The translations under genes were made by a program, and so were the position numbers. Below, piece by piece: positions 17,951 through 62,217 of a stretch of DNA of 64,000 nt. The notes beneath the pieces are model-generated. The model ran no database searches and was not told the origin of the DNA. It saw only the letters and a program-made list of their open reading frames with translations. Position 1 is the stretch's first letter, and each line of letters opens with the position of its first letter. Source of the stretch: Candidatus Shapirobacteria bacterium (GTDB lineage Bacteria; Patescibacteriota; Microgenomatia; UBA12405); assembly GCA_041659325.1 (NCBI GenBank), contig JBAZYN010000001.1, forward strand, positions 494,819 to 558,818. The letters run 5' to 3'.

Positions 17951-18014
17951 AATTACTAATTACAGATTACAGATTACTGATTACAGATTACTGATTACAG
18001 ATTACCAATTACCA
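17951..18014. repeat. tandem heptamer array (AATTACT AATTACAG ATTACAG ATTACTG ATTACAG ATTACTG ATTACAG ATTACCA ATTACCA)
   Basis: Nine 7-nt units immediately 3' of dnaB. Confidence 0.6.
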
Positions 18015-23458: not shown

Positions 23459-25024
23459 CTACGCCATCGCTTGATATCCTCCCAACTGAAGCCCCTTTTT
23501 ACTATAGCGTTGATATAAACCTTTCAGAATTGTACCCACATAATTATCAGGAAACTCCCTTAACTGACCGGCATATTCTAGTATTAGTCTACAAAAGTTA
23601 TCATATGCTCCAACTCTCGCTTCCTCGTATTGCAAAAAATCAACTGTTCCCGATAGACACAATTGTCTGGCCTCTTCACCCCTCCGCAAAACTTCAATTA
23701 TCTTAGCAAAACCAATTTTCCCACAAAAATCCTCCCACCCCGGCAAAACATTTTCCACAAAACCAGTTCCAACCACTCCCGGCAATAAACTTAATTGCCA
23801 TCCCGCCTTTTCTCCCAACATAAAAACATTTAATGGATTTATATTTAAAGCCATCCAATACGCATTCCAAGCATTATGAAACCGATCCACATCCTCTGAA
23901 GCAGACAAACTTTTTCCCAGTGGTTTCCATACCTTATCATTTAACCACCACGCAGACTCGCCTAAACTATTTAATAATTGGTCAGTAGTCTCTATTCTGA
24001 CTTCTGATAATTGTTGTCCTCTATCTCCGACTACCAGGGGCATTATCTGAAAAGGCCAAACTGCCCTAAATTCATGCAATGCTGTCCGAAAACCAGCCAC
24101 TGGAACAAATTGGTTGAAAGCAATCTCCGGCCAAAGGTATTCATTTCCGACAAAGTTAATTATCCCCTTATTTGCCACTGCGACCTCTTTTCTCCCGGGA
24201 TAAAAATTCATTTGTACCCCTAACAATTGCCCATCAGCGCCCGGCACTATTAAACACGGTTGGCAAACCGTTCCTCTGGCCATTAAAAATGGTGCCAGTC
24301 CCAAATTACTATCTGATGGTCCATCAATCCCAAATGGGCTCATCACATGAAGCAAAGGATGACCAAAATATAGCTTCCTTACTGTCTCCACTTCATTTTC
24401 TCCATTACCATCAACTTCCATCCCCAACCTCCTTCGACTCATTTGCCATTGAATTCTGTCTCCAGTATCACTCCTCACTTTTACCATTTCCGCCCATAAG
24501 TTCTTACCCGCCACATCACCAAATACCTCTTCCGCCTCGCCGGTCTGCCCTATTGCCAATAGGTCCACATCAGCATTATTTAAACATGGACGCTCTCCCG
24601 CCATTTCCATCCTCGCTAACTCCGTTGGTGAAAACCTCCATCTGGGAGTTATTCCCCGAACAAAAGCCGGATCTTTCGCTCTTGAAAGATCCAAAGCTGC
24701 CCCCTCCACCGCCATTAATATAAGTTCTGGTTTTCTCACCAAGACTTCACGGATCAACTCCCCGACCTCTGTCATCGCCACCCTTCCATCTTCTTCGTAA
24801 CCATATATACCCCGTATCCTATCGAATTCTATCAACCTTAGACCCACTCCTCCATACTCCTCAAGAGTCGATCCTCCTTTTAGTATTTGCCCTTGTCTGG
24901 CCATTTTTGCCACTCTATTACAAAGATCTATCGATCCTTCTCTCTCCAATAAAACACTCCAACCTTCATGCCCGGCTTGGTCCAAACCCTTTTTGTAAAT
25001 ACCCATCATCTCCTGTTTGTCCAC
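23459..25024 (-). CDS. hypothetical protein, 521 aa, function unknown
   Basis: Long ORF with somewhat higher GC. No motif recognised. Distal gene of a 2-gene operon with the upstream wHTH protein (2-nt gap). Confidence 0.6.
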   Translation of the reverse strand: MDKQEMMGIYKKGLDQAGHEGWSVLLEREGSIDLCNRVAKMARQGQILKGGSTLEEYGGVGLRLIEFDRIRGIYGYEEDGRVAMTEVGELIREVLVRKPELILMAVEGAALDLSRAKDPAFVRGITPRWRFSPTELARMEMAGERPCLNNADVDLLAIGQTGEAEEVFGDVAGKNLWAEMVKVRSDTGDRIQWQMSRRRLGMEVDGNGENEVETVRKLYFGHPLLHVMSPFGIDGPSDSNLGLAPFLMARGTVCQPCLIVPGADGQLLGVQMNFYPGRKEVAVANKGIINFVGNEYLWPEIAFNQFVPVAGFRTALHEFRAVWPFQIMPLVVGDRGQQLSEVRIETTDQLLNSLGESAWWLNDKVWKPLGKSLSASEDVDRFHNAWNAYWMALNINPLNVFMLGEKAGWQLSLLPGVVGTGFVENVLPGWEDFCGKIGFAKIIEVLRRGEEARQLCLSGTVDFLQYEEARVGAYDNFCRLILEYAGQLREFPDNYVGTILKGLYQRYSKKGLQLGGYQAMA

Positions 25025-29516: not shown

Positions 29517-30299
29517 CTATTGTACTACCAAAAGTAATCTGCCAACCTTTGAATTTAGCAATATCCTTCTCTCTCCCTCATCTGTTTGATTATCCACCAA
29601 TTGATCCCACACCGATCTCTCCAAAGACATCACCGGAAACCCCACCTCAATCTCTTTAAAATCCATCTCCACCGGTTCCGGCACCACCAAACCGGCCACC
29701 CCTAGTACCTCCGCCTTAATAATATACGCCACACTGGGTTCTGTTGAAAAGATAATCTTACCGTTTAGAGCGCTAGTTAACTCCGTTAGTTTATTCCGAA
29801 TCCTTAGGTCGCTCTCACCCCACACCTTACCATCCACCAACCCGACTCCCTCATACTTCAGAGACTCAAATTCCAGCACCATTTTCTCCTTTTCCACCTT
29901 CAAAACTTCCGAATCAACCGGCGAAACAATCTCTCTTCTTTTGCTTACCACAGTCTGGAACTGAATATTTAAAAACTCATCAATCCCGCAAAACTTACCG
30001 CTGCATGGAGAATATAGCTTTTTGGGAAACAGTCCTCCGTCGACAAACAACAAGTCCCCCTCCTTAAATTCCTTATCGCTCAAGCTACTATATAATTCCT
30101 GAAGTTTACCCTTAGACATTCTCGACAACATCCACGAGGCGTCATAAGAATCCACTCCGACCTCTTCACAGGTCAACAAAAGTTGCCCTTTCTTCACCTT
30201 CACACCCTCCGATACCTCTACCTTTGCCCCATTGGGAATCATCACCACCCACTTTGACTTCACCGTCGCTAACTTTGATTTTTTTTTCTTCACCGCCAT
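29517..30299 (-). CDS. hypothetical protein
   Basis: 260-aa ORF in an operon with ctpA; no motif recognised. Confidence 0.55.
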   Translation of the reverse strand: MAVKKKKSKLATVKSKWVVMIPNGAKVEVSEGVKVKKGQLLLTCEEVGVDSYDASWMLSRMSKGKLQELYSSLSDKEFKEGDLLFVDGGLFPKKLYSPCSGKFCGIDEFLNIQFQTVVSKRREIVSPVDSEVLKVEKEKMVLEFESLKYEGVGLVDGKVWGESDLRIRNKLTELTSALNGKIIFSTEPSVAYIIKAEVLGVAGLVVPEPVEMDFKEIEVGFPVMSLERSVWDQLVDNQTDEGERRILLNSKVGRLLLVVQ

Positions 30300-33614: not shown

Positions 33615-33646
33615 TTTATTTGAATTCTATAATTTCTAATTACAGA

Positions 33647-33672
33647 TTACTAATTACTGATTACAGTTTACC
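33647..33672. repeat. tandem heptamer array (TAATTACAG ATTACTA ATTACTG ATTACAG)
   Basis: Immediately 3' of recR. Confidence 0.5.
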
Positions 33673-37259: not shown

Positions 37260-37913
37260 TTATTTTTTCTTAGACTTCAAACACTCAATCACGTCTATAC
37301 TGTTAGATATTTTCTTCCCGTTAAAAGTGTCCCCAACTCCGCAACCCGTTGAAGTCGGAACCGGCGCTCTCGAAGTTTTGGGCTGGGCCTTCAGGCATTC
37401 AACCACGTCCAGACTGTTTGCTATTTTTTTACCGTTGTAAGTACTCCCCACCACACATCCCGGGGGGGCAGTCACTGTGGGGACAATCACCATATTTGGC
37501 GTCGCTACCGGCTCCGGTGCCGCCATTGTTTTAAAGGAGTATGGGATACCGTTGTTATCAAAAACCTCTTCTCCTACCCTGATTCTAAAATAATAGTTTG
37601 CTCCTTGTTTTAGAGGGGTCAAAGTCATCTTATGACTTACTACCGATTCTGTTTCCACTGCCCTCAAAAGTAAACTTGCCGGAGTCGATCCGTATTCCAC
37701 TACCCCCATAGACGCCTTATCAGAAGTCCAGGAAATCACAGCACTCTTCCCGTCGGCCAATGGTTTTGCCAACACATCTTTTGGTGCCGTATCAGCCGCC
37801 GCCCCGCTCATATATGTCCTCACAGTATTTATCCCCAACACCCCCAACACCCCTACCAATAAAATAATTACCAGAACAACAATCGATTTTACATTCACCG
37901 CCCCTCTCATTTT
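37260..37913 (-). CDS. secreted protein with FN3-like domain and two C-terminal Cys-containing 24-aa repeats
   Basis: Signal/TM MRGAVNVKSIVVLVIILLVG; VISWTSDKASMGVVEYGST ... YYFRIRV; repeats GCxxGxTxNGKKIxNSxDVxECLK x2. Confidence 0.55.
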   Translation of the reverse strand, partial: KMRGAVNVKSIVVLVIILLVGVLGVLGINTVRTYMSGAAADTAPKDVLAKPLADGKSAVISWTSDKASMGVVEYGSTPASLLLRAVETESVVSHKMTLTPLKQGANYYFRIRVGEEVFDNNGIPYSFKTMAAPEPVATPNMVIVPTVTAPPGCVVGSTYNGKKIANSLDVVECLKAQPKTSRAPVPTSTGCGVGDTFNGKKISNSIDVIECLKSKKK

Positions 37914-38637
37914 ATAACCATCCAAGTAATAGTATGGAAAGTATACTGACACTGCCAAAAACTAATAAGCCCATCGTCGGACCAAAACCACCGGTCCGTG
38001 GCAACTCAGCCTCTGTACTCGTTGTGGTAGTCGTTGTCGTAGAAGTCGAAGTTAACGGAGTTGGAGTCGCGGCAGGATTGGAAGTCGGTGTAGGCCCACT
38101 GGCAGCCTCAACAATAGTATAGGACCCGCTCTGGTTTGCCGCACAGCTGACCACATCAGCCCCATCTTGGTTAGCAATATTTGTATCTCTAGTATTCCCC
38201 TGAGTACAGGCCAAATTAACAATTGCCGTCCCCACCGCTTTTGTCCTAAAAGTGAATGTCAGTAAAGGCCCAGAGACAGTGGCCGAATCGTACAGACTTG
38301 TTGAAGTCGGTGCCAAGGTCATCTCAAAAGTACCAGAGTCGTTTTGAATTTTTGCCGTTCCCGCATCAAAGGTAAAGTTAAAAGCCGGCGCCGAAACCCT
38401 TTCCACCGATAGCAACTCCAGTTTAGTCGCATCAAAGCTCCCCATCACATCCATTGCCAAAACCTTTTCCGCATCCGATTCAGCCCCCAGAACAACTACA
38501 ATGTTTGAACCCACCGTATATGTTCCCGTTGCCGGGGTAAATGTAAATCTCGGAGCCGCAAAAGCTTTTACCGGAGTCACCACCAACATCAGAAACGCAA
38601 CCAGGGAAACCAGTAAAAACTTTACTTTTAGATTCAT
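37912..38637 (-). CDS. cohesin-domain surface protein with Thr-rich linker and C-terminal LPRTG sortase signal
   Basis: Signal peptide; cohesin-like beta-sandwich pattern; T-rich stalk; ELPRTGG followed by a hydrophobic tail. Confidence 0.65.
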   Translation of the reverse strand: MNLKVKFLLVSLVAFLMLVVTPVKAFAAPRFTFTPATGTYTVGSNIVVVLGAESDAEKVLAMDVMGSFDATKLELLSVERVSAPAFNFTFDAGTAKIQNDSGTFEMTLAPTSTSLYDSATVSGPLLTFTFRTKAVGTAIVNLACTQGNTRDTNIANQDGADVVSCAANQSGSYTIVEAASGPTPTSNPAATPTPLTSTSTTTTTTTSTEAELPRTGGFGPTMGLLVFGSVSILSILLLGWL

Positions 38638-39231
38638 TTATTTTATTACCTCAATAGTTAATTTGCTGCCTGAATAAGGTAACGCCTTAGCAGTAGCATT
38701 CTCTACAAACATAGTAGCAGACTCGTTTGTACCGTTTCCAGTACTTACTTCAAAACTAAAATCCCCAACTACTTTTGGAGTTGCTTCAAAGCTCACCAGG
38801 TTCAAAACATCACCCTCGGCCAATTTCATCCCCTGAGTATCCGAAATCAAAAAGTTTACTACTATCATTCCCTTTGTAGTACTGACCTTACTAAATGTCG
38901 GACTAGGCAACTTCGGATCAAAAGTTAAGCTATCAATATCAAATGATTTCGGGTCATATTTAACATACAAATTTAACGAATCAAGAGATCTCTCGTTCTT
39001 CGCAAGCATATTAACTTCCACCATCGACGGCTTTCCTGCCTGCATCTGGCTCTCCCCTGCAAAAACCAAGCTAAAATCAGGGTTGGAAACCACTTCTGAC
39101 GGAATCAGGGCAACATCTCCACCCGGAGGAGTCACCACCAGATTCTTCTTTGCCAGACCTGAAAATAAAATAATACTTTCGGCAATCACCAAAACTGCCG
39201 CAATTGGTACTAATATTTTAAAATAATTCAT
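38638..39231 (-). CDS. secreted cohesin-like domain protein
   Basis: N-terminal TM/signal. Beta-rich domain resembling the cohesin regions of the neighbouring genes. Confidence 0.5.
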   Translation of the reverse strand: MNYFKILVPIAAVLVIAESIILFSGLAKKNLVVTPPGGDVALIPSEVVSNPDFSLVFAGESQMQAGKPSMVEVNMLAKNERSLDSLNLYVKYDPKSFDIDSLTFDPKLPSPTFSKVSTTKGMIVVNFLISDTQGMKLAEGDVLNLVSFEATPKVVGDFSFEVSTGNGTNESATMFVENATAKALPYSGSKLTIEVIK

Positions 39232-39293
39232 ATTTTTCCTCCGTTTGTTTTTTTATAATTTCTTCTAATTTAAAGATAACACAGAACTTCCAA

Positions 39294-40934
39294 CTAATAC
39301 AATTGCTCTAATTTATCTTTTAATGTTTGTTTAAACAAAGCTGTATCAATTCCGTTAACCTTACAGTTCCCGTCCATATCGGCCTGTAAGTAGCCACCGT
39401 CATCTACCTCGTCAATTCTGGTTGCGGCTGATTTCACATAAGAGTAATCAAGACCGTCAACCACCCCATCGGGTACTCCAACCGTCGCTCCGGTCACATC
39501 ACCCGGCATTACCGGATATCTCGAAAAATCATAAAGTGGTGTTGTGTCTGCATCATCGGTCAGAGCTAAATTACCCCATGTCGAAGCAAAATATTCAGAT
39601 TGGTTATCAATCCCATACTTCACCTGAAGATGCTTTGGTCCCTTAAAAAATACGGCTATTCCCTCATAATATGGGAAGTCCGTCAAAACTACTTGGCCTC
39701 CATAAACAACCCTCTCGCTTATTGACGTGTTCAGTACCGGTATCTGCCCGGGATATATCTTAATAGTCCCCTCCGGTGCCAAAACTGTCACCGTCACCGG
39801 CCAATTTACCGCACACATATTGCCCGCCAGTACATCCCTGTAAGAAATCATGTATTTCAAAATCGGCCAACCGGCTGTCATTGGTGGCGTCTCTGTCGGC
39901 AAAAGAGTGTTGGTTGGCCTTAACGTATTTGTCGGCCTCGGTGGCGTCTCTGTCGGCACATCGGCCAGTGGTGTTTCTGTGGGCATCAGGGTATTTGTTG
40001 GTTTTAGTGTATTCGTTGGTCTCACTGGCGTGTTAGTTGGGACGAGGGTATTGGTCGGTCTCAATGTATTCGTTGGCTTCACTGGTGTTTGTGTAGGCCT
40101 CAGCGTATTGGTGGGAATAAGCGTTCCTGTCGGTCTCAATGTATTCGTTGGTCTCACTGGTGTGTTAGTTGGGACGAGGGTATTGGTCGGTCTCAATGTA
40201 TTCGTTGGCTTCACTGGTGTTTGTGTAGGCCTCAGCGTATTGGTGGGAATAAGCGTTCCTGTCGGTCTCAATGTATTTGTTGGTTTTGGTGTAATAGTCG
40301 GGGTCACTTCCGACTGGCTGCCATCTTCAATCACATAACTCATCCCGGTAACTCTATCTATCGACATCGCCGTATCGGTAGTCGTTGAATTACCCGACAC
40401 AACCGATTTACTCTTATCAAGAGTTATCATCCCCGTCGTTGTCGATCCGCCCGCCGTAAACATCAATTTGGCCACATTTACCACTCCGGAGCTCAAATCC
40501 GCTTCCGGCTTGTTAGAAGTCACCGATAAATTAATACATCTATTAATCCCCGCAGGGTAATTGCTGCCACCAACCGCTACCATCATCGACAATGGCACCT
40601 CATTAAACGAGCTCGTTTCTTTATTTACAATTATCACTTTGTCCAAATCAGTCTCATCAACCGAAAGCTTAGTACTGTCATAACAAACCTGAGTGGTTAC
40701 CCCCACTACTTTCGCCTTTTCCGACCCACCCGTTACGTTCCCCGTTTCAACCCACAACTGCACTGGAAAAGCCTCATTCATTTTCAATACTCTGTTCTCG
40801 GGTAAAAGAAATAATTTTGATCCGGCAAAGTACGCCCCGCTTCTGGTATCCCTGCTCCTGCCGGTCAAAAACACTGCCCCGGCAAGAGCGATCAGCAAGA
40901 CCACCCCAAAAACAATGGTCCCTGCCTTTTTCAT
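39294..40934 (-). CDS. secreted protein: cohesin-like N-domain, Thr/Pro-rich tandem repeats, C-terminal type-I-like dockerin
   Basis: Signal peptide. PTNTLRPTGTLIPTNTLRPTQTPVKPTNTLRPTNTLVPTNTPVR repeated. Dockerin duplicated segment GVPDGVVDGLDYSYV ... ADMDGNCKVNGIDTALF. Confidence 0.7.
   Translation of the reverse strand: MKKAGTIVFGVVLLIALAGAVFLTGRSRDTRSGAYFAGSKLFLLPENRVLKMNEAFPVQLWVETGNVTGGSEKAKVVGVTTQVCYDSTKLSVDETDLDKVIIVNKETSSFNEVPLSMMVAVGGSNYPAGINRCINLSVTSNKPEADLSSGVVNVAKLMFTAGGSTTTGMITLDKSKSVVSGNSTTTDTAMSIDRVTGMSYVIEDGSQSEVTPTITPKPTNTLRPTGTLIPTNTLRPTQTPVKPTNTLRPTNTLVPTNTPVRPTNTLRPTGTLIPTNTLRPTQTPVKPTNTLRPTNTLVPTNTPVRPTNTLKPTNTLMPTETPLADVPTETPPRPTNTLRPTNTLLPTETPPMTAGWPILKYMISYRDVLAGNMCAVNWPVTVTVLAPEGTIKIYPGQIPVLNTSISERVVYGGQVVLTDFPYYEGIAVFFKGPKHLQVKYGIDNQSEYFASTWGNLALTDDADTTPLYDFSRYPVMPGDVTGATVGVPDGVVDGLDYSYVKSAATRIDEVDDGGYLQADMDGNCKVNGIDTALFKQTLKDKLEQLY
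40021..40284. repeat. near-perfect 132-bp tandem duplication inside the dockerin-protein CDS
   Basis: Unit beginning CTCACTGGCGTGTTAGTTGGGACGAGG recurs 132 bp later with only a few substitutions. Confidence 0.7.
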
Positions 40935-40935
40935 T

Positions 40936-43900
40936 TTAATTTCCTCCCGAAGTCATCAACTCGCTAAAATACTTGTGCCACAAAGAATAGTCAAAGACAT
41001 TAACGACACCATCGCACTTTCCGTCACTACCGGTAAAGTCGGCGTCCCAGTTTGTACTTACTTCCGGCACTCCGGCACTCAGGTCTACGAACTCTCGTCG
41101 CCATACGGCATAATCGGTTACATCAATCGAACCGTCGCAATTGGCATCACCTTTTGACTTACCTTTAAAGGTAGGTTTCGGTACATTAGAGCCCGTACAG
41201 TTATCATCTACATCTCTTACGAAACCATTCATCACATAGCCAGGTACAAACCACCGATACTCCCCTCCGGTATTCAGCTTATAACATTCAAAAGTGGTTG
41301 GGCATTCCTTACAACTTGAAGCTGCACCTTCTGCTACCGTAATCCAGTGTATACAATTTGTACTGTTACAGTTCCTGCCGCTTACCGGTTCATAATACCC
41401 CGGGCAGCTATTAGTCTGGTTCTGATACAGTTTCCCATCCGCCGTACACAATTGAGAACACTGATTGTTACAGGCCGATTTTAACTCTACTGCAAAAACC
41501 CCCACTTCGTTCATCTGATAGGCCGCTTTCGGATAATACGCTCCGCTAGCACCACCAATCGCAAAGCTATTCGCGCTTGGTTGTGCCCCTACCGATGAAA
41601 CCTTGCTCATATAAATTATTCCCCAATTAGAAACGGTTCCGGTCATATTGACGATTTCACCTTTTTTAACGGTGATATTCCCGTTTGCATTATTCAAAGT
41701 CAAACCGTTACATGAGAAATTCTGGTTGCAGGTCGCCGTCGGAATCGGTGTCAGAGACGGTACCGGCACTCCGGTCGGGATCCCGCACCTACAGCTCAAA
41801 TCACCGGCACAACTTGGATTCCGGCAAAAATTCCCCGGTTTCCCCTGGCTATCAAAATAACCCGAGGTACACACCAATCCTAAACTGCGATCACACATAT
41901 CCTGACCCTGGATCATTGTGCAGGATTCATTGCACCCAGCCGCAGCGGTGGCAACGTTAAATGTCGCATTATCGGTCGACGCACACGACACAAAGCCCGT
42001 GCACGGCAGACTGCCTCCCTTATAACTACAGGCCGGATTACCGGTACATTTACCCACCGGTGCTGTCGGCACATCACAATGCGCTACATAGTTGCCAGCC
42101 GGCAAACCCGCAAACTGAAAACTATCATTGCAAGCTGCCCCATTAATGCTATTGCACTGTTTAACTCTGGTGTAATAGAACCCTTCTTCTCCGGGAACAC
42201 TGGAATTAGCTGCCAATGGCGCCGGCGACATTTTCGAAGTATCAATCTGTTTATAATCCCTTCTTTCTATCCACAATCTCACCGGATAAGTCCCCGAAGC
42301 GTTAGCATTACCTTCATAAGTAATGGTTATTGCCCCTCCCGGAGCTGATTGAGGAATCAAGCCGGTAATTCGGCAATATGCTTTACTTTCCGTCCCCGTC
42401 GGTACCACCGTCGGGACCACACTGCCCGAACAACATCGATAAGTCGGCGCCCAACCGCAGCCATTGGCCGCCGCTGTCGCTGTATCGCCAAATCTGGTAC
42501 AAGCCTTACCGCAATTAGTAGTGCAGTTGGCCTCGTTGGAATAGCATCCGCCGGTACAACTTGTCGGCGCGCTACCTGTCGGCACCGTTGTTGGTCTGAC
42601 TGTTGGCGTTACAGAAGAGCCGCAACTCGAAGAACTAACACAGCTAGTCGCTCCATTAAAGCTCCTTGCTCCATCCCATCTGGTACAATACACCCCATCA
42701 TTTCTCAAAAATTGGTTAGCAGGACAGCTAGTACTCACACCCGGGTTAGATACAAAACCAGTGTTGCAGCTCGAACCCGCTCTACACCAATTCATTCCCG
42801 ACCACCCGCACGACATATCCCAAACACTATCCTGACAACTGGGCGCTATAGTCGGGGCAGGCGTCGTCCCGGAACAATTCGTGGATGTAATACAAGTAGA
42901 CGAACCATTAAAGCTCTTAGCCCCATCCGATCTGGTACAGTAAGTCCCCTGATTTCTCATAAACTGATTCGGGGCACAACCGGTGGCAACCAACGGCCCG
43001 GAAATATAACCGGTATCACAACTGGTCCCAACTTTACACCAATTTAATCCCGTCCATCCACAGGCCATATCCCAAGTACCATTAGCCTGACAGCTTCCGG
43101 GAGCCGAGGTTACTGTAGCTGCTTTCACCGTAAACTTAATAAGCAGTTGGCAATTGTTACTGCCTGATTCTGCCATTCTAAAACTGGCTACTCCACCCGT
43201 ACCCGAAAATTTTACCGTATTACTATTCCATGCATCGACTACTTTCCAACTTACCCCCTCTACACTTCCTCCTACGGTCACCTTAACATCACCACCCCCG
43301 CCACCTACATTTAATCTTTTGACTTTAAAATACCTACCACCCGGGTTAGAAAATCCACATGTTCCGGTTGAACTAGTATTACCGGGGTTCTCCCAAGATT
43401 CAAATGAACCGCTGGTTGATTGAACCGTTATTTTTACTCCGTTTCCATCAGACAGCACTTTTCCTGCACTGTCCACTACTATCCCCCCGTAATCAACATA
43501 ATGCCCCTCGCCGGTTCCGCCACACGACCACCAGTCAACATAGTTATTGTTGCTATCACAACACGCCTGTTTATCAGGATTCCCGTCAGCCGAAGGACAG
43601 CTGTGGTAAGAATTGGGTATTGCCGTAGGAGTCAAAGTCGGACCCACGGTTGGAACCATAGTTGGCACTCTAGTCGGAGCCACTGTCGGTCTTACCGTCG
43701 CAGTCGGAACCACGGTTGATCTTTTACAATACCCCGAGCTAGTAGTGCTGCTACAAACAAACCCGCTACAACACCTATTATCAGAGTCACAATAATCACC
43801 ATCACAAGTATACTGCGGAGTCGGTGTTCTAGTGGGAACCACCGTCTTGGTCGGTGTAACCGTCGTTCTGGTTGGCGTTGCCGTTACCCTAATAGTTGGA

Positions 43901-44406
43901 GTAGAAGTCCCATACGGCTTTACTGTCGGCTTTACGGTCGATGTCGGAGACGTTGTAGATGTATATTTGCAACAATTTTGTCCCGTTGGACACCATCCCG
44001 ACCCTTCTCCGATAAATGTTTTTCCCGCAACTCCATAATTCAAACTACAAGCTTTATAATTATCCATACACATTTGAGACAAACCAGCGCTCTCGCAATG
44101 TTGGGTCGGAGTATTAGTCGGTCTCAGAGTGTCCGTCGGTACTGGCCTTATACAATATTCCTCACCATATGGGTTACCGGGAGACGTCTGGCAGACTAAA
44201 CCGGCACAACAATTATTGTATCTTGAGTCACCACTGACACACCCACGATCCTGGGCTATACAAGCACCGCTTGTTGGTGTTACTGCTGGCTCCGACGGCA
44301 TTGCCGCCCTGTTTCTAATATCCTGGTTCTGTTGGCTTAATTTGGTAACCATCGGCAGTGCCACTGCCATTATCACCAAACCTATAATCAATGGTATCTG
44401 AGCCAT
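40936..44406 (-). CDS. giant secreted Cys-rich multi-domain protein with C-terminal dockerin (ORF extends to 44517; probable start at the MAQIPLIIG signal peptide)
   Basis: Signal/TM. Thr-rich linkers. Two copies of a 70-aa Cys-rich module (WDMxCGWxGxNWC ... NQFxRN ... YCTR). C-terminal dockerin pair DANCDGSIDVTDYAVW / SDGKCDGVVNVFDYSLW. Confidence 0.75.
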   Translation of the reverse strand: MAQIPLIIGLVIMAVALPMVTKLSQQNQDIRNRAAMPSEPAVTPTSGACIAQDRGCVSGDSRYNNCCAGLVCQTSPGNPYGEEYCIRPVPTDTLRPTNTPTQHCESAGLSQMCMDNYKACSLNYGVAGKTFIGEGSGWCPTGQNCCKYTSTTSPTSTVKPTVKPYGTSTPTIRVTATPTRTTVTPTKTVVPTRTPTPQYTCDGDYCDSDNRCCSGFVCSSTTSSGYCKRSTVVPTATVRPTVAPTRVPTMVPTVGPTLTPTAIPNSYHSCPSADGNPDKQACCDSNNNYVDWWSCGGTGEGHYVDYGGIVVDSAGKVLSDGNGVKITVQSTSGSFESWENPGNTSSTGTCGFSNPGGRYFKVKRLNVGGGGGDVKVTVGGSVEGVSWKVVDAWNSNTVKFSGTGGVASFRMAESGSNNCQLLIKFTVKAATVTSAPGSCQANGTWDMACGWTGLNWCKVGTSCDTGYISGPLVATGCAPNQFMRNQGTYCTRSDGAKSFNGSSTCITSTNCSGTTPAPTIAPSCQDSVWDMSCGWSGMNWCRAGSSCNTGFVSNPGVSTSCPANQFLRNDGVYCTRWDGARSFNGATSCVSSSSCGSSVTPTVRPTTVPTGSAPTSCTGGCYSNEANCTTNCGKACTRFGDTATAAANGCGWAPTYRCCSGSVVPTVVPTGTESKAYCRITGLIPQSAPGGAITITYEGNANASGTYPVRLWIERRDYKQIDTSKMSPAPLAANSSVPGEEGFYYTRVKQCNSINGAACNDSFQFAGLPAGNYVAHCDVPTAPVGKCTGNPACSYKGGSLPCTGFVSCASTDNATFNVATAAAGCNESCTMIQGQDMCDRSLGLVCTSGYFDSQGKPGNFCRNPSCAGDLSCRCGIPTGVPVPSLTPIPTATCNQNFSCNGLTLNNANGNITVKKGEIVNMTGTVSNWGIIYMSKVSSVGAQPSANSFAIGGASGAYYPKAAYQMNEVGVFAVELKSACNNQCSQLCTADGKLYQNQTNSCPGYYEPVSGRNCNSTNCIHWITVAEGAASSCKECPTTFECYKLNTGGEYRWFVPGYVMNGFVRDVDDNCTGSNVPKPTFKGKSKGDANCDGSIDVTDYAVWRREFVDLSAGVPEVSTNWDADFTGSDGKCDGVVNVFDYSLWHKYFSELMTSGGN

Positions 44407-44590
44407 GCCCAAATTTTCTCTAAAATTAAAAAATCCAATTATCTTCCGTATTTTTGGGCTCATTTTCTGTTTTTTTATATAAAAATATACGCAAATACTA
44501 ATAGAAAAGTAAAACACTTGGCATCACCTGAGTCAATACGTCAAATGTTAAAACACCCAATAATCATTACTTTTCTTCTATACTTAAACT

Positions 44591-45967
44591 ATGGCTAACA
44601 AGAATTTAAACCTATTAAAAACCATTTTCCCTCTTGTCGCCCTGCCATTCATAATCCTGGCCATAAAAACGGTTTTAGATATCCGCAAAGGTGCTGCTGG
44701 TATCCCCGCCGCCATTATCATCGACACCCAAAGTCCTCAGGGTAATATCCCCTCTTCCCTATGGCAAAACATTTCTCAGGGTGGCGAAGAGCCTACCGAT
44801 ATGATTGCTCCTGTTTTATACCAAACCAAGCCCCTCCGGCTCCAACTGATACGAATCGACCACCTATTCGATTACTATCAGGTTTACGCCGGTCCCGGAA
44901 ACTACAACTTCGAAAAGCTCGATCGTATTATAAATAGTATCCTGTCAACCGGCGCCAAGCCGATGCTTTCCGTTTCCTACACCACTTCCTCTATGTCCAA
45001 AAACGGTCAAAACGCCGGCGAGCCATCAGACTGGAACCAATGGTACCAATTAGTCAAGGCCACCGCCAACCGTTATTCCCGGGAAAAAAATATCTCCGGT
45101 ATTTATTACGAAGTCTGGAACGAGCCCGACCTTTTTGGCGGTTGGCACTATGCCAAAAGCCCCGATTACTCCACCCTTTACGTTCAAACTGCCAGAGCAA
45201 TTGTCGACGGTGCCGGCAATTCCGATTACAAAATCGGCGGCCCGGCTACTACCGGCTTTTATGAAAACTGGATTAAATCCTTATTTAAAACGGCCACCGA
45301 AAATCGCCTCCGCCTCAATTTCATCTCCTGGCACAAATATTCCAAAAACATTATCGATTACGAAAAAGACTTTAATAACTTAAACAAAATTTTATCTGAC
45401 TTTCCTCAATATTTCGGCATTGAAAGGATTATCACCGAAACCGGCCCCTCTCCAGAAGCCGACGCCTGGTACGACAATAAGCTTTCCGGAATTCATCTTA
45501 TTTCCCTCTGTACTCAAATGGCCGGCAAAATCCACCGTCTTTTCCCATTTGAACTCGTCGACGGCCCCTCCCCAAGATCCCCAAACTCAACCGGTTGGGG
45601 TATAATCACTCACCACACCAACGGCTCTGTCCCAAAACCCCGCTATTATGCTCTCCAGTTCCTAAACCAACTCCAGGGCCAACGTTTATCCTCAACCGGT
45701 GATGGCAGTTGGGTTACTTCGCTTTCGGCCAAAAATGGCTCAATAATCTCCACCCTATTAGTAAACTACGACAGTTTAAATTTACATCCCGAAACCGTCC
45801 CGGTCACCTTCCGCGGCATTAGCCCCGGCAATTATCGGCTAGTTAGCACCATTTATATGGGCAAAGAAAATTCCAAAAATATAACCGTCCCCTCATTCAA
45901 TTACACCGAAAACGTCTACCTCGAGCCCAATTCTGCCATCATTCTCAAACTCACCCCGCTAAATTAA
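44591..45967 (+). CDS. membrane-anchored clan GH-A glycoside hydrolase (GH39/GH5-like)
   Basis: N-terminal TM. Acid/base box YYEVWNEPDLFGGW and nucleophile box ERIITETGPSP, typical of clan GH-A (beta/alpha)8 hydrolases. Confidence 0.7.
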   Translation: MANKNLNLLKTIFPLVALPFIILAIKTVLDIRKGAAGIPAAIIIDTQSPQGNIPSSLWQNISQGGEEPTDMIAPVLYQTKPLRLQLIRIDHLFDYYQVYAGPGNYNFEKLDRIINSILSTGAKPMLSVSYTTSSMSKNGQNAGEPSDWNQWYQLVKATANRYSREKNISGIYYEVWNEPDLFGGWHYAKSPDYSTLYVQTARAIVDGAGNSDYKIGGPATTGFYENWIKSLFKTATENRLRLNFISWHKYSKNIIDYEKDFNNLNKILSDFPQYFGIERIITETGPSPEADAWYDNKLSGIHLISLCTQMAGKIHRLFPFELVDGPSPRSPNSTGWGIITHHTNGSVPKPRYYALQFLNQLQGQRLSSTGDGSWVTSLSAKNGSIISTLLVNYDSLNLHPETVPVTFRGISPGNYRLVSTIYMGKENSKNITVPSFNYTENVYLEPNSAIILKLTPLN

Positions 45968-46108: not shown

Positions 46109-46126
46109 AAAACAGTTCTCACTCTT

Positions 46127-46213
46127 AATTCGTAATTAGTAATTAGTAATTTTGGAATTTTATTACAGGTTACAGATTACTTATTACAGATTACCAATTA
46201 CAGGTTACCAATT
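46127..46213. repeat. tandem heptamer array (TAATTCG TAATTAG TAATTAG ... TTACAGG TTACAGA ... ATTACCA ATTACAGG TTACCAA)
   Basis: About 12 units directly 3' of rseP; overlaps its stop codon. Confidence 0.6.
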
Positions 46214-47265: not shown

Positions 47266-47298
47266 TGATCTGTAACCGGTAATCTGTAATCAGTAATT
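47266..47298. repeat. heptamer array in inverted orientation (CTGTAAC CGGTAAT CTGTAAT CAGTAAT)
   Basis: The only array in the opposite orientation; lies between the rseP start and the four-helix-bundle gene. Confidence 0.45.
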
Positions 47299-47399: not shown

Positions 47400-47705
47400 C
47401 TATTTTAGATCTTTTGCTAACAAAATAAAATTTTGAACTTCCTTTAGCGATCCTCTTGCTTGAAAATAGAATTTAATTTTATCATTAAAATGATATCTAC
47501 CAAATCCCTCTGCTATATTAGCACTAATTGAGCTCGCAGCCCTCCTTAGCTGATCACAAACTCCATATTTCTCAACTCGAGGGAACTTATCCAATATTTT
47601 ATAAACAGAAATCACCAAGGCGTGTGATTCCTTCCATGAATTTAAATCATAAAAATCCAATATTCTCCCCATCTTCCTATCACATTCTACCAGTTTGATT
47701 ACCAA
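47400..47705 (-). CDS. four-helix-bundle protein (23S rRNA intervening-sequence protein family)
   Basis: KFPRVEKYGVCDQLRRAASSISANIAEGFGRY ... ARGSLKEVQNFILLAKDL is the signature of the TIGR02436-type family. Confidence 0.75.
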   Translation of the reverse strand: MVIKLVECDRKMGRILDFYDLNSWKESHALVISVYKILDKFPRVEKYGVCDQLRRAASSISANIAEGFGRYHFNDKIKFYFQARGSLKEVQNFILLAKDLK

Positions 47706-47770
47706 TTACAGGTTACCAATTACAGGTTACCAATTACAGGTTACCAATTACTGATTACTGATTACTGATT
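47697..47770. repeat. tandem heptamer array (GATTACC AATTACAGG TTACCAA TTACAGG ... ATTACTG ATTACTG ATTACTG)
   Basis: About 10 units between frr (3' end) and the four-helix-bundle gene start. Confidence 0.65.
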
Positions 47771-48341: not shown

Positions 48342-48379
48342 AATTACCAGTTACAGATTACAGATTACAGGTTACCAAT
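48342..48379. repeat. tandem heptamer array (AATTACC AGTTACAG ATTACAG ATTACAGG TTACCAA)
   Basis: Directly 3' of tsf. Confidence 0.55.
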
Positions 48380-48861: not shown

Positions 48862-48897
48862 CAATTACAGATTACTGATTACAGATTACTGATTACC
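48862..48897. repeat. tandem heptamer array (AATTACAG ATTACTG ATTACAG ATTACTG ATTACCA)
   Basis: Directly 3' of rpsB. Confidence 0.55.
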
Positions 48898-50602: not shown

Positions 50603-50650
50603 ACTACAGATTACAAGTTACAGGTTACCAATTACTGATTACCAATTACC
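50603..50650. repeat. tandem heptamer array (CTACAG ATTACAAG TTACAGG TTACCAA TTACTGA TTACCAA TTACC)
   Basis: Lies inside the ORF-poor 1.8-kb region. Confidence 0.55.
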
Positions 50651-51595: not shown

Positions 51596-53872
51596 ATGCC
51601 CGACAGTGTTCAAAGCCAGTTCACCATTCTTGAAATCCGTCTGCCACAAAACAACGAATACACTCTGGAGTCTATGTCCTCTCTTTTTTCCAATTTCACC
51701 CAATTTTCCAGTCTTGGATTTTTCGAGAAACTCCTCGGCAAAAAGAAAACTATTGCCTCAATTGAAATCGCCCTGATAAACGGCCAGATTAGATTTTTTG
51801 TCGTCACCAACACCCGTGACGCCGATTTTTTCCGGGCCCAAATTTTAGCCCAATACCCCACTGCCATCACCCGCAACCCCGATGATTATCTAACCCCTTT
51901 TTTAGTCGGGTCGCACTGCCCCGTTACCCCAGGCCAAGATTCCACTCCAAAAACAGAAATAACCCCCCAGCGCCTCAGTTTCATCCAGCTTGGTCTTTCC
52001 CGCATGTCTGATTACCCTCTAAAAATCGCCAAAGACTTTCGCGATACCGATCCTCTAAATTCCATCCTGGCCCCGCTCTCCCGATCAAACAGCCGCGATG
52101 ATTTTTTCCTCTATCAAATAATTCTTTCCTCCGCCCCCAAAAACTGGCAGGGTCCAATTATCGACGTTATTCAAAACGGCACGGTAGTCGACAAAGAAAA
52201 AGGCTATCACCAAGCTCATCCCGACAAAGCCGTCTTTGAGCAAAAAATCCAGTTCCCCGGGCTTCTGGCCCAAATCAATCTTTTCTCCAATAATCCCGGG
52301 TTAATTACCGGCGTTTCCTCCTCCTTTGGCATCTACACCAGCCCCCGCGGTAATCTTATCAAAACCTTTACCCCTGGTTTTTTTCACAAAAATAAACTCC
52401 CAACCGCAATATTCTCCAGGGAAATCAAAAAAGGTCTCAAAACTCAGATTCTAAACACCGAGGAACTCGCTGCCCTCTGCCATTTTCCCAATAAACTCAC
52501 AAAACTTCCTAACATCGCCTGGGGCAAAAAACTTTATGCCGAACCCCCGGAAAATCTCCCCATAATCGAAGGTCTCTCCGAAGAAGAAAAAAACAAAATT
52601 ACCGTTTTCGGTCGCACAGAATTCCGCAACAAAGACGCCATTTTTGGTATCAAAGAGGGGGAAGACCGTCGCCGCCATACCTATATTATCGGTAAATCCG
52701 GTACCGGAAAAACCACCCTCATTGCCAACATGGCCATTGATGACATCAGAAAAGGCCGTGGCGTCGCTATCATCGACCCTCACGGTGATCTTTGCAACAC
52801 CATTCTTGACTATATTCCCAGCAACCGCATCAACGACTGTTGTTATTTCAACCCCGCCGATCCGGAATACGTCTACCCGTTAAATGTTCTCGAGGCCAAA
52901 AACGAGTCCCAAAAAGAATTAGTCGCTTCCGGTGTCCTCTCCATCTTCAAAAAACTCTATGGTACTGTTTCCTGGGGACCGCGTCTCGAGCACATCCTCA
53001 GAAACACCGTCCTGACTCTTGTAAATACTCCCGACTCCAACCTAACCCATGTTATCGAAATCTTAACCAACAGAAACTATCGAAATCGGGTTATTGAAAA
53101 GTTAAACAATCAAACTCTCAAAAACTTCTGGCTCAACGAATTTGACCGAATGGACCCAAAATTCCAAAACGAAGCCATTGCCCCGGTTCTAAACAAAGTC
53201 GGTCAGTTCATTTCCTCCACCAAAATCAGAAACACTCTTGCCCACTCCAAATCAAAAGTCGATATTCAAAGCATCATGGACCAAAAAAAGATCCTTATAG
53301 CCGATCTCTCCACTGGCCGCCTCGGAGAAGACAATTCATCTCTTCTAGGCGCTATGTTAATCACCCAAATCCAGCTTTCCGCCATGAACCGTGTTTTTCA
53401 AACGGTAGAAGAAAGATCTGATTTCTATCTTTACGTCGACGAATTTCAAAACTTTGCCACAGAAGCTTTCATCAAAATCCTCTCCGAAGCCCGTAAATTT
53501 AAGCTTAATCTAATCGTCGCCAATCAATACATGAACCAGTTGGAACGTCCGATTCAGGATGCTATTTTCGGCAACGTCGGTTCCCTTATCTCCTTTGTCG
53601 TTGGCAACCAGGATGCCGCTATCCTCCAAAAAGAATTCGGAGCCGAGTTCCCCTCAGATGACCTTGTGAAACTTGGTAGATATCAGGTCATTTGCCGTCT
53701 CTCCATTGACTCAGAAACAACCCAGCCTTTTTATTCCAACACCCTTCCGCCGCTCCTGTGCAAAAATCAGCATCGCGATAAAGTAATTAGAACTTCCCAG
53801 GAAAGATGGGGCAAAAAACTAAAAGACGCCTTTCCCCCACCCAATTCCCTGCCAGTCATTCCACAACCCTAA
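51596..53872 (+). CDS. P-loop ATPase of the VirB4/VirD4(TraG/TrwB) type IV secretion or conjugation family, no TM segments, 350-aa unknown N-terminal domain
   Basis: Walker A IIGKSGTGKTT, then IDPHGD. Walker B LYVDEFQNF. Family-typical ARKFKLNLIVANQYMNQL (RK...Q..QL) box. Confidence 0.6.
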   Translation: MPDSVQSQFTILEIRLPQNNEYTLESMSSLFSNFTQFSSLGFFEKLLGKKKTIASIEIALINGQIRFFVVTNTRDADFFRAQILAQYPTAITRNPDDYLTPFLVGSHCPVTPGQDSTPKTEITPQRLSFIQLGLSRMSDYPLKIAKDFRDTDPLNSILAPLSRSNSRDDFFLYQIILSSAPKNWQGPIIDVIQNGTVVDKEKGYHQAHPDKAVFEQKIQFPGLLAQINLFSNNPGLITGVSSSFGIYTSPRGNLIKTFTPGFFHKNKLPTAIFSREIKKGLKTQILNTEELAALCHFPNKLTKLPNIAWGKKLYAEPPENLPIIEGLSEEEKNKITVFGRTEFRNKDAIFGIKEGEDRRRHTYIIGKSGTGKTTLIANMAIDDIRKGRGVAIIDPHGDLCNTILDYIPSNRINDCCYFNPADPEYVYPLNVLEAKNESQKELVASGVLSIFKKLYGTVSWGPRLEHILRNTVLTLVNTPDSNLTHVIEILTNRNYRNRVIEKLNNQTLKNFWLNEFDRMDPKFQNEAIAPVLNKVGQFISSTKIRNTLAHSKSKVDIQSIMDQKKILIADLSTGRLGEDNSSLLGAMLITQIQLSAMNRVFQTVEERSDFYLYVDEFQNFATEAFIKILSEARKFKLNLIVANQYMNQLERPIQDAIFGNVGSLISFVVGNQDAAILQKEFGAEFPSDDLVKLGRYQVICRLSIDSETTQPFYSNTLPPLLCKNQHRDKVIRTSQERWGKKLKDAFPPPNSLPVIPQP

Positions 53873-56057: not shown

Positions 56058-56178
56058 ATTTACTAAATTACTAATTACAGACTTGCCTGCCGGTAGGCAG
56101 GTTACCAGTTACTGATTACAGATTACCAGTTACCGGTTACAGATTACCATTTACCAATTACTGATTACCAGTTACAAG
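56058..56178. repeat. long tandem heptamer array with embedded palindrome GACTTGCCTGCCGGTAGGCAGGTTAC
   Basis: About 15 heptamer units (ATTACTA ATTACAG ... TTACTGA TTACAGA TTACCAG ...) between the 133-aa gene and the topA start. Confidence 0.6.
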
Positions 56179-57385: not shown

Positions 57386-57457
57386 ATTACAGATTACAGA
57401 TTACAGACCTGCCTGCCGGTTTACCCGCCGTGGTGGGCAGGCAGGTTACAAATTACA
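57386..57457. repeat. tandem heptamer array with embedded palindrome CCTGCCTGCCGG ... GGGCAGGCAGG
   Basis: AATTACAG ATTACAG ATTACAG then palindrome then TTACAAA TTACATT; overlaps the PBP2 stop codon. Confidence 0.6.
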
Positions 57458-60246: not shown

Positions 60247-62217
60247 ATGAAATTAATACCCAGGGCAATTATTTTTTGCTACCTCCTGCTTTTCTTTTTC
60301 ACCCCCCTGATTTTCACCTCCTTTAATTCAGAGCTGTTCGAATTACCCAAAACTTACTTTGTTTTTGCCATTACTATACTTGTTCTTTCCCTTCATTTAA
60401 TCAATCATTTTGTCAACGCCACTCCCCTCTATCGCCGCAGCTTCCTGGACATCCCTTTTGCACTATTTCTACTCTCCCAAGCCATTTCCACCATTATTTC
60501 CATCGATCCCCACACCTCTCTTTGGGGCTATTATTCCCGAATGAACGGCGGGCTTTTATCCACCGTCTCATATCTCACCCTTTTCTGGGTTTTCAATGTT
60601 TACCTCACCGATTCTCTAAAAAACAAGCTAGTCCACACTGCCCTGATTTCCGGATTAATAGTCTCTGTGTACGGAATTTTGCAGCATTTCGGTATCGACA
60701 AACACCTCTGGATTCAGGATGTCCAAAACCGGGTTTTCTCCACCCTCGGCCAACCAAATTGGTTGGCCGCCTATCTTTGTATCCTTATCCCTTTTGCCAT
60801 TTTGAAATTTCTTAATTCCAAATCAAAGTTACAGTTTACTGTTTACAGTTTACTGATTACCGTTTTTTATCTGTGTCTCCTTTTTACCAAATCCAAATCA
60901 GGTATTCTTGCCGCCATCATCACCATCTCTCTCTTTCTTATTATCTATTCCCAAAAAACAAAAAAAATTCTATTACCGATTATCGTTTCCGGCTTAGTGA
61001 TTATTTTTCTTTTTACCGTCAACAATCCCATTCAAAATCGCCTTTCCCCCTCCTCCCCCCAAACTCCCTCAGCCCTGTCAGAGGTTACCGCCGACACTAA
61101 TATTACTGCCTCAGAAGATATCAGAAAAATTGTCTGGCAAGGTGCCTTTGACCTCTGGAAACGTTTCCCCGTCCTTGGCACCGGAGTAGAAACTTTTGCC
61201 TATTCTTATTACTGGACCAGGCCGACCTCTCATAATCTCACCTCCGAGTGGGACTTTCTCTACAACAAAGCCCACAACGAATATTTAAACTACCTCGCTA
61301 CTACCGGCGCTCTAGGCTTACTTGCCTACCTCCTCATCATTTTCACCGTTCTCAAAAAATTAATCCCTAATCACCAATCCGATATAGAAAACCTGGCTAT
61401 CCTCTCCGGCTTCTCCGCCATTTTGATCACCAATGCCGCCGGTTTTACCGTCGTTGTCTCATCTTTATTTTTCTTCCTTCTTCCCGCCCTCATCAAAATC
61501 CCGCCACAGGTTATTACTCCAAAAGCCAAACTAAAAGATAATTTTTTTACCATTCCCCTTGTCATTTTTACCCTAATCTGTGGCAGCTATCTTTTCAACA
61601 CCATTACCGCCTATTATCTAGCCGATATCGCCTTCGCCCAATCCGAAAATACCGATGCCGACCAAGAGCCTCAAACTGCCTATGACTACATCGGCGCCGC
61701 CATTAAATTTCGACCCACCGAGCCCTTGTACCAAAGCAAGATGTCTACCATCGCCGTCAAACTCGCTTCCATCGACAAACAATCGCAAGACAACAACATC
61801 AAGATCGCCCTGGCCGCTTCTGACAAATCCGTTGCCGATTCTCCGGCCAATGTTAACTTTTGGAAAGAACGAGCCCAAATGTTTATTTACCTGTCCACCA
61901 TCGATTCAAAATATTTTACCGACTCCATCGAGTCCCTTCTCTCCGCCTCCCGTCTTGCTCCCACCGATGCCAAAATTTTTTATCTTATCGGTCGTTTTTA
62001 TCTTACTGCCGGCCAAACTCCAGAGGCCCTTTTGTACTTTCAAAAAGCCATCGACCAAAAACCAAACTATGATTTTGCCTATTTTGATATGGGGAAAATT
62101 TATTTGGATCAGAAAGACTATCAAAAAGCCAAAGAATCATTTGAAACCACCCTAAAAATCGCCCCAAAAAACACCGACGCCCAAAATTACCTTGATCAAA
62201 TCAACCTCCTTGACTAG
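60247..62217 (+). CDS. O-antigen ligase (Wzy_C) family membrane protein with C-terminal TPR repeats
   Basis: About 10 TM helices. Periplasmic loop WQGAFDLWKRFPVLGTGVETF ... NKAHNEYLNYL matches Wzy_C. C-terminal TPR-like helices. Contains an in-frame heptamer stretch at 60828-60865. Confidence 0.7.
   Translation: MKLIPRAIIFCYLLLFFFTPLIFTSFNSELFELPKTYFVFAITILVLSLHLINHFVNATPLYRRSFLDIPFALFLLSQAISTIISIDPHTSLWGYYSRMNGGLLSTVSYLTLFWVFNVYLTDSLKNKLVHTALISGLIVSVYGILQHFGIDKHLWIQDVQNRVFSTLGQPNWLAAYLCILIPFAILKFLNSKSKLQFTVYSLLITVFYLCLLFTKSKSGILAAIITISLFLIIYSQKTKKILLPIIVSGLVIIFLFTVNNPIQNRLSPSSPQTPSALSEVTADTNITASEDIRKIVWQGAFDLWKRFPVLGTGVETFAYSYYWTRPTSHNLTSEWDFLYNKAHNEYLNYLATTGALGLLAYLLIIFTVLKKLIPNHQSDIENLAILSGFSAILITNAAGFTVVVSSLFFFLLPALIKIPPQVITPKAKLKDNFFTIPLVIFTLICGSYLFNTITAYYLADIAFAQSENTDADQEPQTAYDYIGAAIKFRPTEPLYQSKMSTIAVKLASIDKQSQDNNIKIALAASDKSVADSPANVNFWKERAQMFIYLSTIDSKYFTDSIESLLSASRLAPTDAKIFYLIGRFYLTAGQTPEALLYFQKAIDQKPNYDFAYFDMGKIYLDQKDYQKAKESFETTLKIAPKNTDAQNYLDQINLLD

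Follow-up and report, generated by a model that had tools for sequence, protein, structure and literature searches.

A conserved operon of three cohesins and three dockerins in Candidatus Shapirobacteria, predicted to form a self-contained cell-surface complex

The analysis of a 64,000-nucleotide stretch (the window) of contig JBAZYN010000001.1 from a Candidatus Shapirobacteria bacterium, a member of the candidate phyla radiation (CPR), revealed a cluster of cohesin and dockerin genes. Five consecutive minus-strand genes with a hydrolase gene on the opposite strand had been described from the letters alone (the sequence-only reading), and all six open reading frames (ORFs), named here G1 to G6, were found at the positions claimed. 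The gaps between successive genes from G5 to G1 are 1, 62, 0 and 1 nt, and the five genes are therefore considered an operon. It encodes three cohesins (G2, G3 and the N-terminus of G4) and three dockerins (G1, G4 and G5), each belonging to its own conserved family. The sequence-only reading had listed two cohesin proteins and two dockerin proteins; these stand, but the N-terminal cohesin of G4 and the dockerin of G1 had been overlooked. Hidden Markov models (HMMs) of all six families detected no further copies of these module types in the 64 kb. Promoter and terminator scans gave nothing above chance.

Homologue look-ups combined with a scan of species-representative genomes identified 18 further distinct contigs carrying the operon. 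Gene order (G5-G4-G3-G2-G1) is identical throughout the resulting set of 19 contigs; all five genes are present in 17 of them, and rpsU-yqeY-ybeY-dnaX follow the operon in every contig. Most of the contigs are labelled Shapirobacteria, Microgenomates or Patescibacteria. The coordinates of the features discussed are collected in Table 1.

Table 1. Features of the locus and of the remainder of the window
Feature	Coordinates	Strand	Content or basis
G1	37260-37910	minus	transmembrane helix, FN3-like domain, linker, dockerin
G1 transmembrane helix	37800-37910		LVGVLGVLG glycine zipper
G1 FN3-like domain	~37527-37763	minus	Pur_ac_phosph_N, 30 bits (Pfam)
G1 dockerin	~37263-37460	minus	two Cys-bracketed repeats
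G2	37912-38637	minus	signal peptide, cohesin, Thr-rich linker, LPRTG, hydrophobic C-terminus
G2 cohesin	~38098-38559
G2 LPRTG	37990-38004
G3	38638-39231	minus	N-terminal transmembrane helix, linker, cohesin
G3 membrane helix	39150-39231		invariant Glu-Ser
G3 cohesin	~38641-39075
G4	39294-40934	minus	N-terminal helix, cohesin, linker, X module, dockerin
G4 shared N-terminal motif	~40830-40934
G4 cohesin	40320-40823	minus	AlphaFold2 with Foldseek, hhalign
G4 PTNTLRPT linker	39876-40319	minus
G4 tandem duplication	40008-40284		132 bp
G4 X module	39507-39875	minus
G4 dockerin	39297-39506	minus	Dockerin_1 above gathering threshold
G5	40936-44463	minus	N-terminal helix, Cys-rich mosaic, pre-dockerin Cys module, dockerin
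G5 shared N-terminal motif	~44300-44463
G5 tandem 8-Cys modules	42616-43095 (42868-43095, 42616-42840)	minus	two modules
G5 dockerin	40939-41154
G6	44591-45967	plus	GH39 glycoside hydrolase, divergent from the operon
G6 shared N-terminal motif	44591-44700
Thioredoxin-like protein	3247-4236	plus	VSR_TRX
Coupling ATPase	51596-53872	plus	DUF87, TrwB_AAD_bind
ORFs with no Pfam match	23459-25024; 16533-17612; 29517-30299; 15581-16249	minus
ORF with no Pfam match	20406-21143	plus
ATTACNN arrays, first part	11420-11445, 11823-11855, 17952-18012, 33632-33671, 46125-46208, 47272-47297, 47698-47765
ATTACNN arrays, second part	48343-48375, 48864-48896, 50624-50649, 56108-56175, 57386-57404, 60819-60877

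The Pfam gathering thresholds (GA) are 24.1 bits for Cohesin (PF00963), 22.9 bits for Dockerin_1 (PF00404) and 26 for Glyco_hydro_39. Among the window proteins the only cohesin or dockerin score above its curated threshold was that of the G4 dockerin (Dockerin_1, 23.7 bits). The Pfam search proposed with the sequence-only reading returned a mixed outcome: this dockerin passed and the GH39 match of G6 was strong, but the cohesins of G2 and G3 and the dockerin of G5 remained below GA. The borderline matches were accepted because orthologue scans, profile comparison and an AlphaFold model support the cohesin and dockerin assignments.

G4 had been read as a Thr/Pro-rich protein with a duplicated C-terminal dockerin motif. 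The dockerin was confirmed, but the cohesin at the N-terminus and the X module in front of the dockerin had gone unnoticed. A profile of the G4 C-terminus matched dockerins of the PDB at E values from 4.6e-6 to 2.4e-3. A dockerin was taken to consist of two repeats, each with a helix after the loop D-x-[DN]-x-[DN]-G-x-[IV]-[DN]-x-x-D. Repeat 2 of G4 reads DMDGNCKVNGID, in keeping with the canonical two-repeat EF-hand-like loop; repeat 1 contains a 5-residue insertion in most orthologues and is canonical in three of them (L006, L020 and L023). An AlphaFold2 model built from nine homologues gave a predicted local distance difference test (pLDDT) score of 75-91 for residues 38-205. When the model of this N-terminal domain was compared with the PDB by Foldseek, the top 11 matches were all cohesins (E=2.4e-8 to 1.3e-4), with target-normalized template modelling scores of 0.63-0.72 (matches 1 to 7) and 0.26-0.56 (matches 8 to 11), at 10-15% sequence identity to the solved cohesins. 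According to the model, the domain has the beta-sandwich fold of a cohesin. The linker that follows is ~100 residues longer than in most orthologues because of a 132-bp tandem duplication (2.1 copies, 98% identical). The same metagenome-assembled genome (MAG) encodes a G4 paralogue, WC841_04125 (P0034/P0107; 821 aa), in which two cohesins are combined with an almost identical X-dockerin.

G2 combines a cohesin with a sorting signal, as the sequence-only reading had proposed from ELPRTGG and the hydrophobic tail after it. The Cohesin match scored 19.0 bits (E=1.7e-3), and profile-profile alignment by hhalign matched this domain to the N-terminal domain of G4 with 96% probability (E=4e-9, 164 columns). 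A cleavable signal peptide was predicted by inspection, with the cut between VKAFA and AP. L-P-x-T-G is invariant in 23 of 23 G2 homologues (34-78% identity), and the hydrophobic stretch behind LPRTG measures 24 residues. Most homologues carry a single K or R near the C-terminus as the basic tail residue. The NCBIfam model EF0750_LPXTG scored 21.5 bits on G2, below its cut-off of 47. Several homologues come with precomputed PF00963 and PF00746 matches, and an NCBI protein identical to G2, from a Candidatus Shapirobacteria MAG, is named 'cohesin domain-containing protein'. It is encoded on a contig of 573,898 bp, and its locus-tag prefix recurs on another contig, of 335,373 bp. A natural G3+G2 fusion was found on a JGI contig of 4,940 bp (P0029): it consists of a transmembrane helix, the G3 cohesin, the G2 cohesin and LPQTG, the G2 signal peptide being deleted, and its Pfam scores for Cohesin (34 bits) and Gram_pos_anchor (24.9 bits) are both above GA. 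We predict that G2 is the sortase-anchored base of the complex.

The second cohesin-like protein of the sequence-only reading, G3, was likewise borne out. Its own Cohesin match is below GA (22.7 bits, E=1.2e-4), and 10 of 18 orthologues match the same family, the best at E=2.3e-7. The best PDB sequence matches of an 18-sequence G3 profile were nearly all cohesins, yet weak (E ~0.1). By hhalign G3 aligned to the N-terminal domain of G4 (E=1e-3) and gave no significant alignment to G2. On these profile data G3 is a predicted cohesin tethered to the membrane. The invariant Glu-Ser inside its helix, like the glycine zipper in the conserved helix of G1, may hint at helix-helix contacts within the membrane.

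The dockerin of G1 is degenerate in the window. Its two repeats, TYNGKKIANSLD and TFNGKKISNSID, lack the canonical EF-hand-like loop, and G1 of the window gave no Dockerin_1 match in Pfam. Among its orthologues such a match was obtained in 15 of 18 (best E=5.5e-8), and the repeats, which read DYNxDGVxNSxD, are canonical in 16 of 18. The closest relative (L024, G1 at 6666-7316) has IYNGKAIANSLD as repeat 1 and TFNGKKIANSMD as repeat 2, the latter nearly as in the window. Common to both is the loss of the Ca ligands D1 and D5 in both repeats, with Lys at position 5; the remainder of the module is still conserved despite this loss. With Lys in place of a Ca-ligand Asp in both repeats, the G1 dockerin is possibly a natural Ca-independent dockerin.

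G5 is the giant Cys-rich protein with a C-terminal dockerin of the sequence-only reading. Both traits hold, but its length, put at about 1150 aa, had to be changed: judged from orthologue N-termini, translation most likely starts at ATG 44463, which gives 1175 aa. The whole protein scored 15.9 bits against Dockerin_1, and its C-terminal 140 aa alone reached 22.4 bits (E=1.4e-4), just under GA. The repeats of the dockerin pair, DANCDGSIDVTD and DGKCDGVVNVFD, conform to the loop as defined above; 6 of 16 G5 orthologues match Dockerin_1, and the C-terminal family profile matches PDB dockerins at 5.3e-5. There are 78 cysteines from Gly37 onward (the longest ORF has 79), and the protein is made up of small disulfide-rich modules and beta domains with Thr/Pro linkers between them. 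Only the first ~40 and the last ~130 residues are conserved among orthologues, a conserved Cys module preceding the dockerin. The ~1000 residues in between form a hypervariable, shuffled mosaic. Orthologue lengths range from ~340 to more than 1600 aa, and whole modules are gained and lost even among close relatives. The conservation of the N-terminal helix (GxAQIPLxIGL...QNQDxRNxA) goes far beyond what a generic signal peptide would need. A word-indexed homologue search with G5 returned one protein, the low-complexity linkers having swamped the search.

Several explanations of these features of G5 were tried and rejected. A likeness of some 6-Cys modules to knottin, hevein or CBM1 patterns was considered, but no Pfam match backs it. 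For a pilin-like reading of the N-terminus (G followed by LAQIPL...), the Glu at +5 is lacking. A diversity-generating retroelement as the source of variability was discarded, since no template/variable repeat pair was found; no long direct repeat involving G5 occurs anywhere in the window, and no reverse transcriptase was present among the window ORFs scanned.

The two Cys-rich modules noticed earlier in G5 are real: the tandem 8-Cys modules are 54% identical to each other (E=2e-31). They are absent from all other G5 orthologues, and an exhaustive HMMER search found only 25 related proteins in 1.84 billion representatives, some of which carry dockerins. Two of these proteins are encoded in the same MAG, P0072 (WC841_02535) and P0073 (WC841_04205), and P0073 also has the next 8-Cys module of G5, 'CxGGCY...RCC'. 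Another, P0080 (MBI1934829.1, 1229 aa), comes from a MAG labelled Candidatus Woesearchaeota archaeon (DPANN) and also matches GH130/GH43-like and peptidase M64 families. Structure prediction, suggested at the outset for this module, produced a confident model: from a 20-sequence alignment AlphaFold2 predicted a six-stranded all-beta domain (pLDDT 95.9, predicted template modelling score 0.80). Foldseek found no match for it in the PDB (best E=1.2) or among the viral models of BFVD (best E=0.46). The analysis thus yielded, as a by-product, a small disulfide-rich domain that is predicted with confidence and is without a structural relative in the PDB. Elsewhere in the window lies a gene for a thioredoxin-like protein, secreted or anchored in the membrane (VSR_TRX, E=5.6e-10; CPYG motif; 12 Cys), which may bear on the oxidative folding of Cys-rich G5.

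The adjacent membrane-anchored clan GH-A hydrolase of the sequence-only reading proved to be a GH39 enzyme with an N-terminal helix (G6; Glyco_hydro_39, 87.8 bits, E=9e-25). Over the catalytic (beta/alpha)8 domain it aligns to GH39 beta-xylosidases of the PDB such as XynB (1w91, 1px8) at E=7e-22, with the acid/base motif VWNEP in register; by inspection, the nucleophile motif is likely to be IITETG. Unlike XynB, G6 has an N-terminal membrane or export helix. Neither Pfam nor the family HMMs detected a dockerin in G6. A GH39 gene lies divergently upstream of the operon in 10 of the 13 genomes in which this flank is visible; L002, L004 and L014 have an intact operon but lack the gene. G6 accompanies the operon and is not a subunit that can dock. 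The N-termini of G4, G5 and G6 have a motif in common, a hydrophobic helix followed by [QN]Q[DE]xR[RKN]xA[AY], exemplified by QNQDIRNRAA, SRDTRSGAYF and LDIRKGAAG; the G4 helix carries it as QxQDxRxGA and G6 as DxRKxAAG. All orthologues in the three families (L002-L024) conserve this motif, which suggests a shared route for export or processing and not a role in docking.

The wiring between the modules was analyzed by Mantel tests on pairwise distance matrices computed per module in the 17 genomes holding all five genes. The G2 cohesin and the G4 dockerin showed the strongest correlation between a cohesin and a dockerin (r=0.66, p=5e-5), ahead of the G4 cohesin and the G5 dockerin (r=0.56, p=2.5e-4) and of the G3 cohesin and the G4 dockerin (r=0.37, p=0.003). 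The other six cohesin-dockerin pairs gave r<=0.24 and were not significant. The G4 dockerin correlates more with the G2 cohesin than with the intervening G3 cohesin. The cohesin and dockerin of G4, which are parts of one polypeptide, reached only r=0.13, and the adjacent G2 cohesin and G1 FN3 domain showed no covariation (r=0.17). The X module of G4 correlates both with the dockerin of G4 (r=0.61) and with the cohesin of G2 (r=0.56). These relations were robust to the use of Spearman correlation and to removal of the only two genomes that are closely related. For the G1 dockerin, covariation pointed to no cohesin partner. Overall, the covariation fits a putative chain of wall, G2, G4 and G5, and identity to the closest relative drops outward along it: 80% for G1, 77% for G2, 64% for G3, 60% for G4 and ~35-41% for G5.

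We consider it probable, at roughly 60%, that the products of the operon assemble into a self-contained, non-enzymatic complex of cohesins and dockerins on the cell surface of this monoderm CPR bacterium. In the proposed assembly G2 would be exported, cut between LPRT and G by a sortase encoded elsewhere and covalently joined to peptidoglycan, which would place one cohesin on the wall. The X-dockerin of G4 would plug into this cohesin, and at the far end of a Thr/Pro-rich stalk, whose length varies, the N-terminal G4 cohesin would take the dockerin of G5. G5 would then be the exposed distal subunit, its mosaic middle most likely binding a ligand on a host cell or polymer. The membrane-tethered cohesin G3 and the membrane-tethered G1, with its FN3 domain and Cys-stapled dockerin, would form a membrane-proximal part and may serve as a staging or second attachment point. 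The GH39 enzyme would be co-exported and act beside the complex, not on it. The order of anchor, adaptor and payload put forward in the sequence-only reading is backed by the architecture, by synteny in the 19 contigs and by the covariation. In favour of the sorting step, a sortase has been reported from another complete genome of the Microgenomates (PMC7143001).

A number of observations weigh against such a complex. Single-sequence Pfam scores are mostly under the curated thresholds, and the dockerin region of the G4 model is of low confidence (pLDDT 27-43). The C-terminus of G2 reads LLLGWL here, without the usual basic residues, and no sortase was found in the 64-kb window, neither as a TLxTC motif nor among 36 proteins scanned with Pfam (the six of the locus and 30 others). 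The coding regions of the G5 dockerin and the G4 cohesin adjoin each other, and because of this adjacency a shared recombination history could yield part of their covariation. The G1 dockerin covaries with nothing and is without Ca ligands D1 and D5 in this genome. Conserved N-terminal helices are retained in G1, G3, G4 and G5, and some of these proteins may therefore stay in the membrane and not be released. Finally, Pfam recognized no binding domain in G5, and the word 'adhesin' would therefore rest on position, variability and analogy.

A literature search found no published description of this operon. The sequence-only reading had held that the domain combination could not be assigned to any described system; that statement is not sustained, since the operon follows the logic of the sca cluster of Ruminococcus flavefaciens (scaC-scaA-scaB-cttA-scaE; PMC5301203), which we regard as the closest known analogue. 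By this analogy the operon would be an enzyme-free variant. ScaE, a single cohesin with LPXTG, is attached to the wall by sortase and binds the X-dockerins of both ScaB and CttA; the adaptor ScaC is a small protein with a cohesin and a dockerin, and CttA is a non-enzymatic, dockerin-tipped adhesion subunit (PMC5301203). Both clusters have five genes. G2 resembles ScaE (signal peptide, cohesin, LPXTG), G4 resembles ScaC and G5 resembles CttA, and the dyad of X module and dockerin with dockerin insertions is paralleled by the X module of G4 and the repeat-1 insertion in most of its orthologues. In contrast to the sca cluster, the operon has no multi-cohesin scaffoldins, dockerin-bearing enzymes or recognized carbohydrate-binding modules (CBMs), it adds the membrane-tethered G3 cohesin and FN3-dockerin protein G1, and its tip protein is a hypervariable Cys-rich mosaic. 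The hosts also differ, a CPR bacterium with a genome of at least ~0.9 Mb here and a fibre-degrading Firmicute there.

The nearest mention of such modules in the CPR literature is a dockerin-domain envelope protein of the Saccharibacterium Southlakia epibionticum, SEML1_0315, which is essential and has been proposed to target host glycans (PMC10633639). As with other non-cellulosomal cohesin or dockerin modules of bacteria and archaea, the organism concerned is no cellulose degrader. In these reports the domains stand alone, with no partner identified, whereas the operon contains a closed set of three cohesins and three dockerins conserved across a lineage.

As to what the complex does, one tentative and possible reading is that the operon specifies a host- or substrate-recognition organelle of Shapirobacteria, with a fixed anchor and adaptor and a G5 tip re-tooled by shuffling of disulfide-rich modules, among them the 8-Cys beta domain. 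The variability pattern of G5 is typical of recognition proteins. If this were so, G5 alleles would set which partner a cell attaches to, and the module pool would be shared with other secreted proteins, one of them from the DPANN-labelled MAG.

A structural role, in place of an adhesion device, is an unlikely alternative. The operon would then build an S-layer-like or wall-organizing scaffold for envelope integrity, and G5 would vary through exposure to phages or predators. The location within a core housekeeping block in every related genome examined is in line with this, as are the highly conserved transmembrane helices of G1 and G3, with their glycine zipper and invariant Glu-Ser, and the lack of a recognized ligand-binding domain in G5. 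Gain and loss of whole modules in G5 among close relatives would be unusual for a load-bearing structural protein. The architecture itself resembles an anchoring system that bears an adhesion subunit, and the structural and recognition roles are compatible with each other.

The expression 'cellulosome-like or adhesion scaffold' in the sequence-only reading is supported as regards the architecture of a predicted cohesin-dockerin scaffold; in the enzymatic sense 'cellulosome-like' is unsupported because the GH39 enzyme cannot dock. A minimal polysaccharide-degrading cellulosome with G6 as its enzyme is improbable. The divergent position of the GH39 gene next to the operon in 10 of 13 genomes, the intact NEP acid/base motif and the DxRKxAAG motif shared with G4 and G5 would agree with such a function, but the enzyme has no dockerin and is dispensed with in the three genomes named above, no dockerin-bearing enzyme or CBM was detected in the operon, and each scaffold protein in the window has one cohesin. 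The dockerin enzymes on a multi-cohesin, CBM-bearing scaffoldin by which a cellulosome is strictly defined were not found in the window; the two-cohesin protein WC841_04125 is encoded elsewhere in the MAG.

Non-cellulosomal cohesin and dockerin modules are, as Peer et al. reportedly described in FEMS Microbiol Lett in 2009, widespread and without known partners. That the modules of the operon likewise do not pair and are independent beta-sandwich and EF-hand-like domains of unrelated, co-transcribed secreted proteins would accord with the marginal Pfam scores, but is very improbable given their 3:3 stoichiometry in one strictly conserved operon, covariation specific to pairs, the G3+G2 fusion P0029, and the G4 paralogue of the same MAG, which retains the X-dockerin while carrying two cohesins.

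If a surface complex is indeed formed, the operon would be a concrete candidate for the attachment of CPR bacteria to a host or substrate, being lineage-wide, part of the core genome and composed of testable parts. To our knowledge, attachment of CPR bacteria outside Saccharibacteria is essentially uncharted, type IV pili being the sole device tested. The specific wiring predicted here is that G2 binds G4 and G4 binds G5. Cohesin-dockerin binding works with recombinant modules, and these interactions are therefore easy to test in vitro.

The remainder of the window yielded several minor observations. Five ORFs of 222-521 aa have no Pfam match (Table 1), and two of these, at 23459-25024 and 16533-17612, have no NCBIfam match either. 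About 13 intergenic spacers are filled with arrays of a 7-nt unit, ATTACNN (for example ATTACAGATTACTGATTAC), and ATTACNNATTACNNATTAC has 45 matches in the window against 0.01 expected by chance. None of these arrays lies inside the G5-G1 operon. On the minus strand, which is mostly coding, they read GTAATNN and present TAA in every frame, and some of the sites pair as inverted repeats, for example 46125-46150 with 46162-46208. A gene for a TraD/VirD4-like coupling ATPase lies a few kb from rpsB, and the same is true of L002 (1-2003). GC skew is strongly negative over the whole window, from -0.09 to -0.48, and a similar strand disparity has been reported from another Microgenomates genome (PMC7143001).

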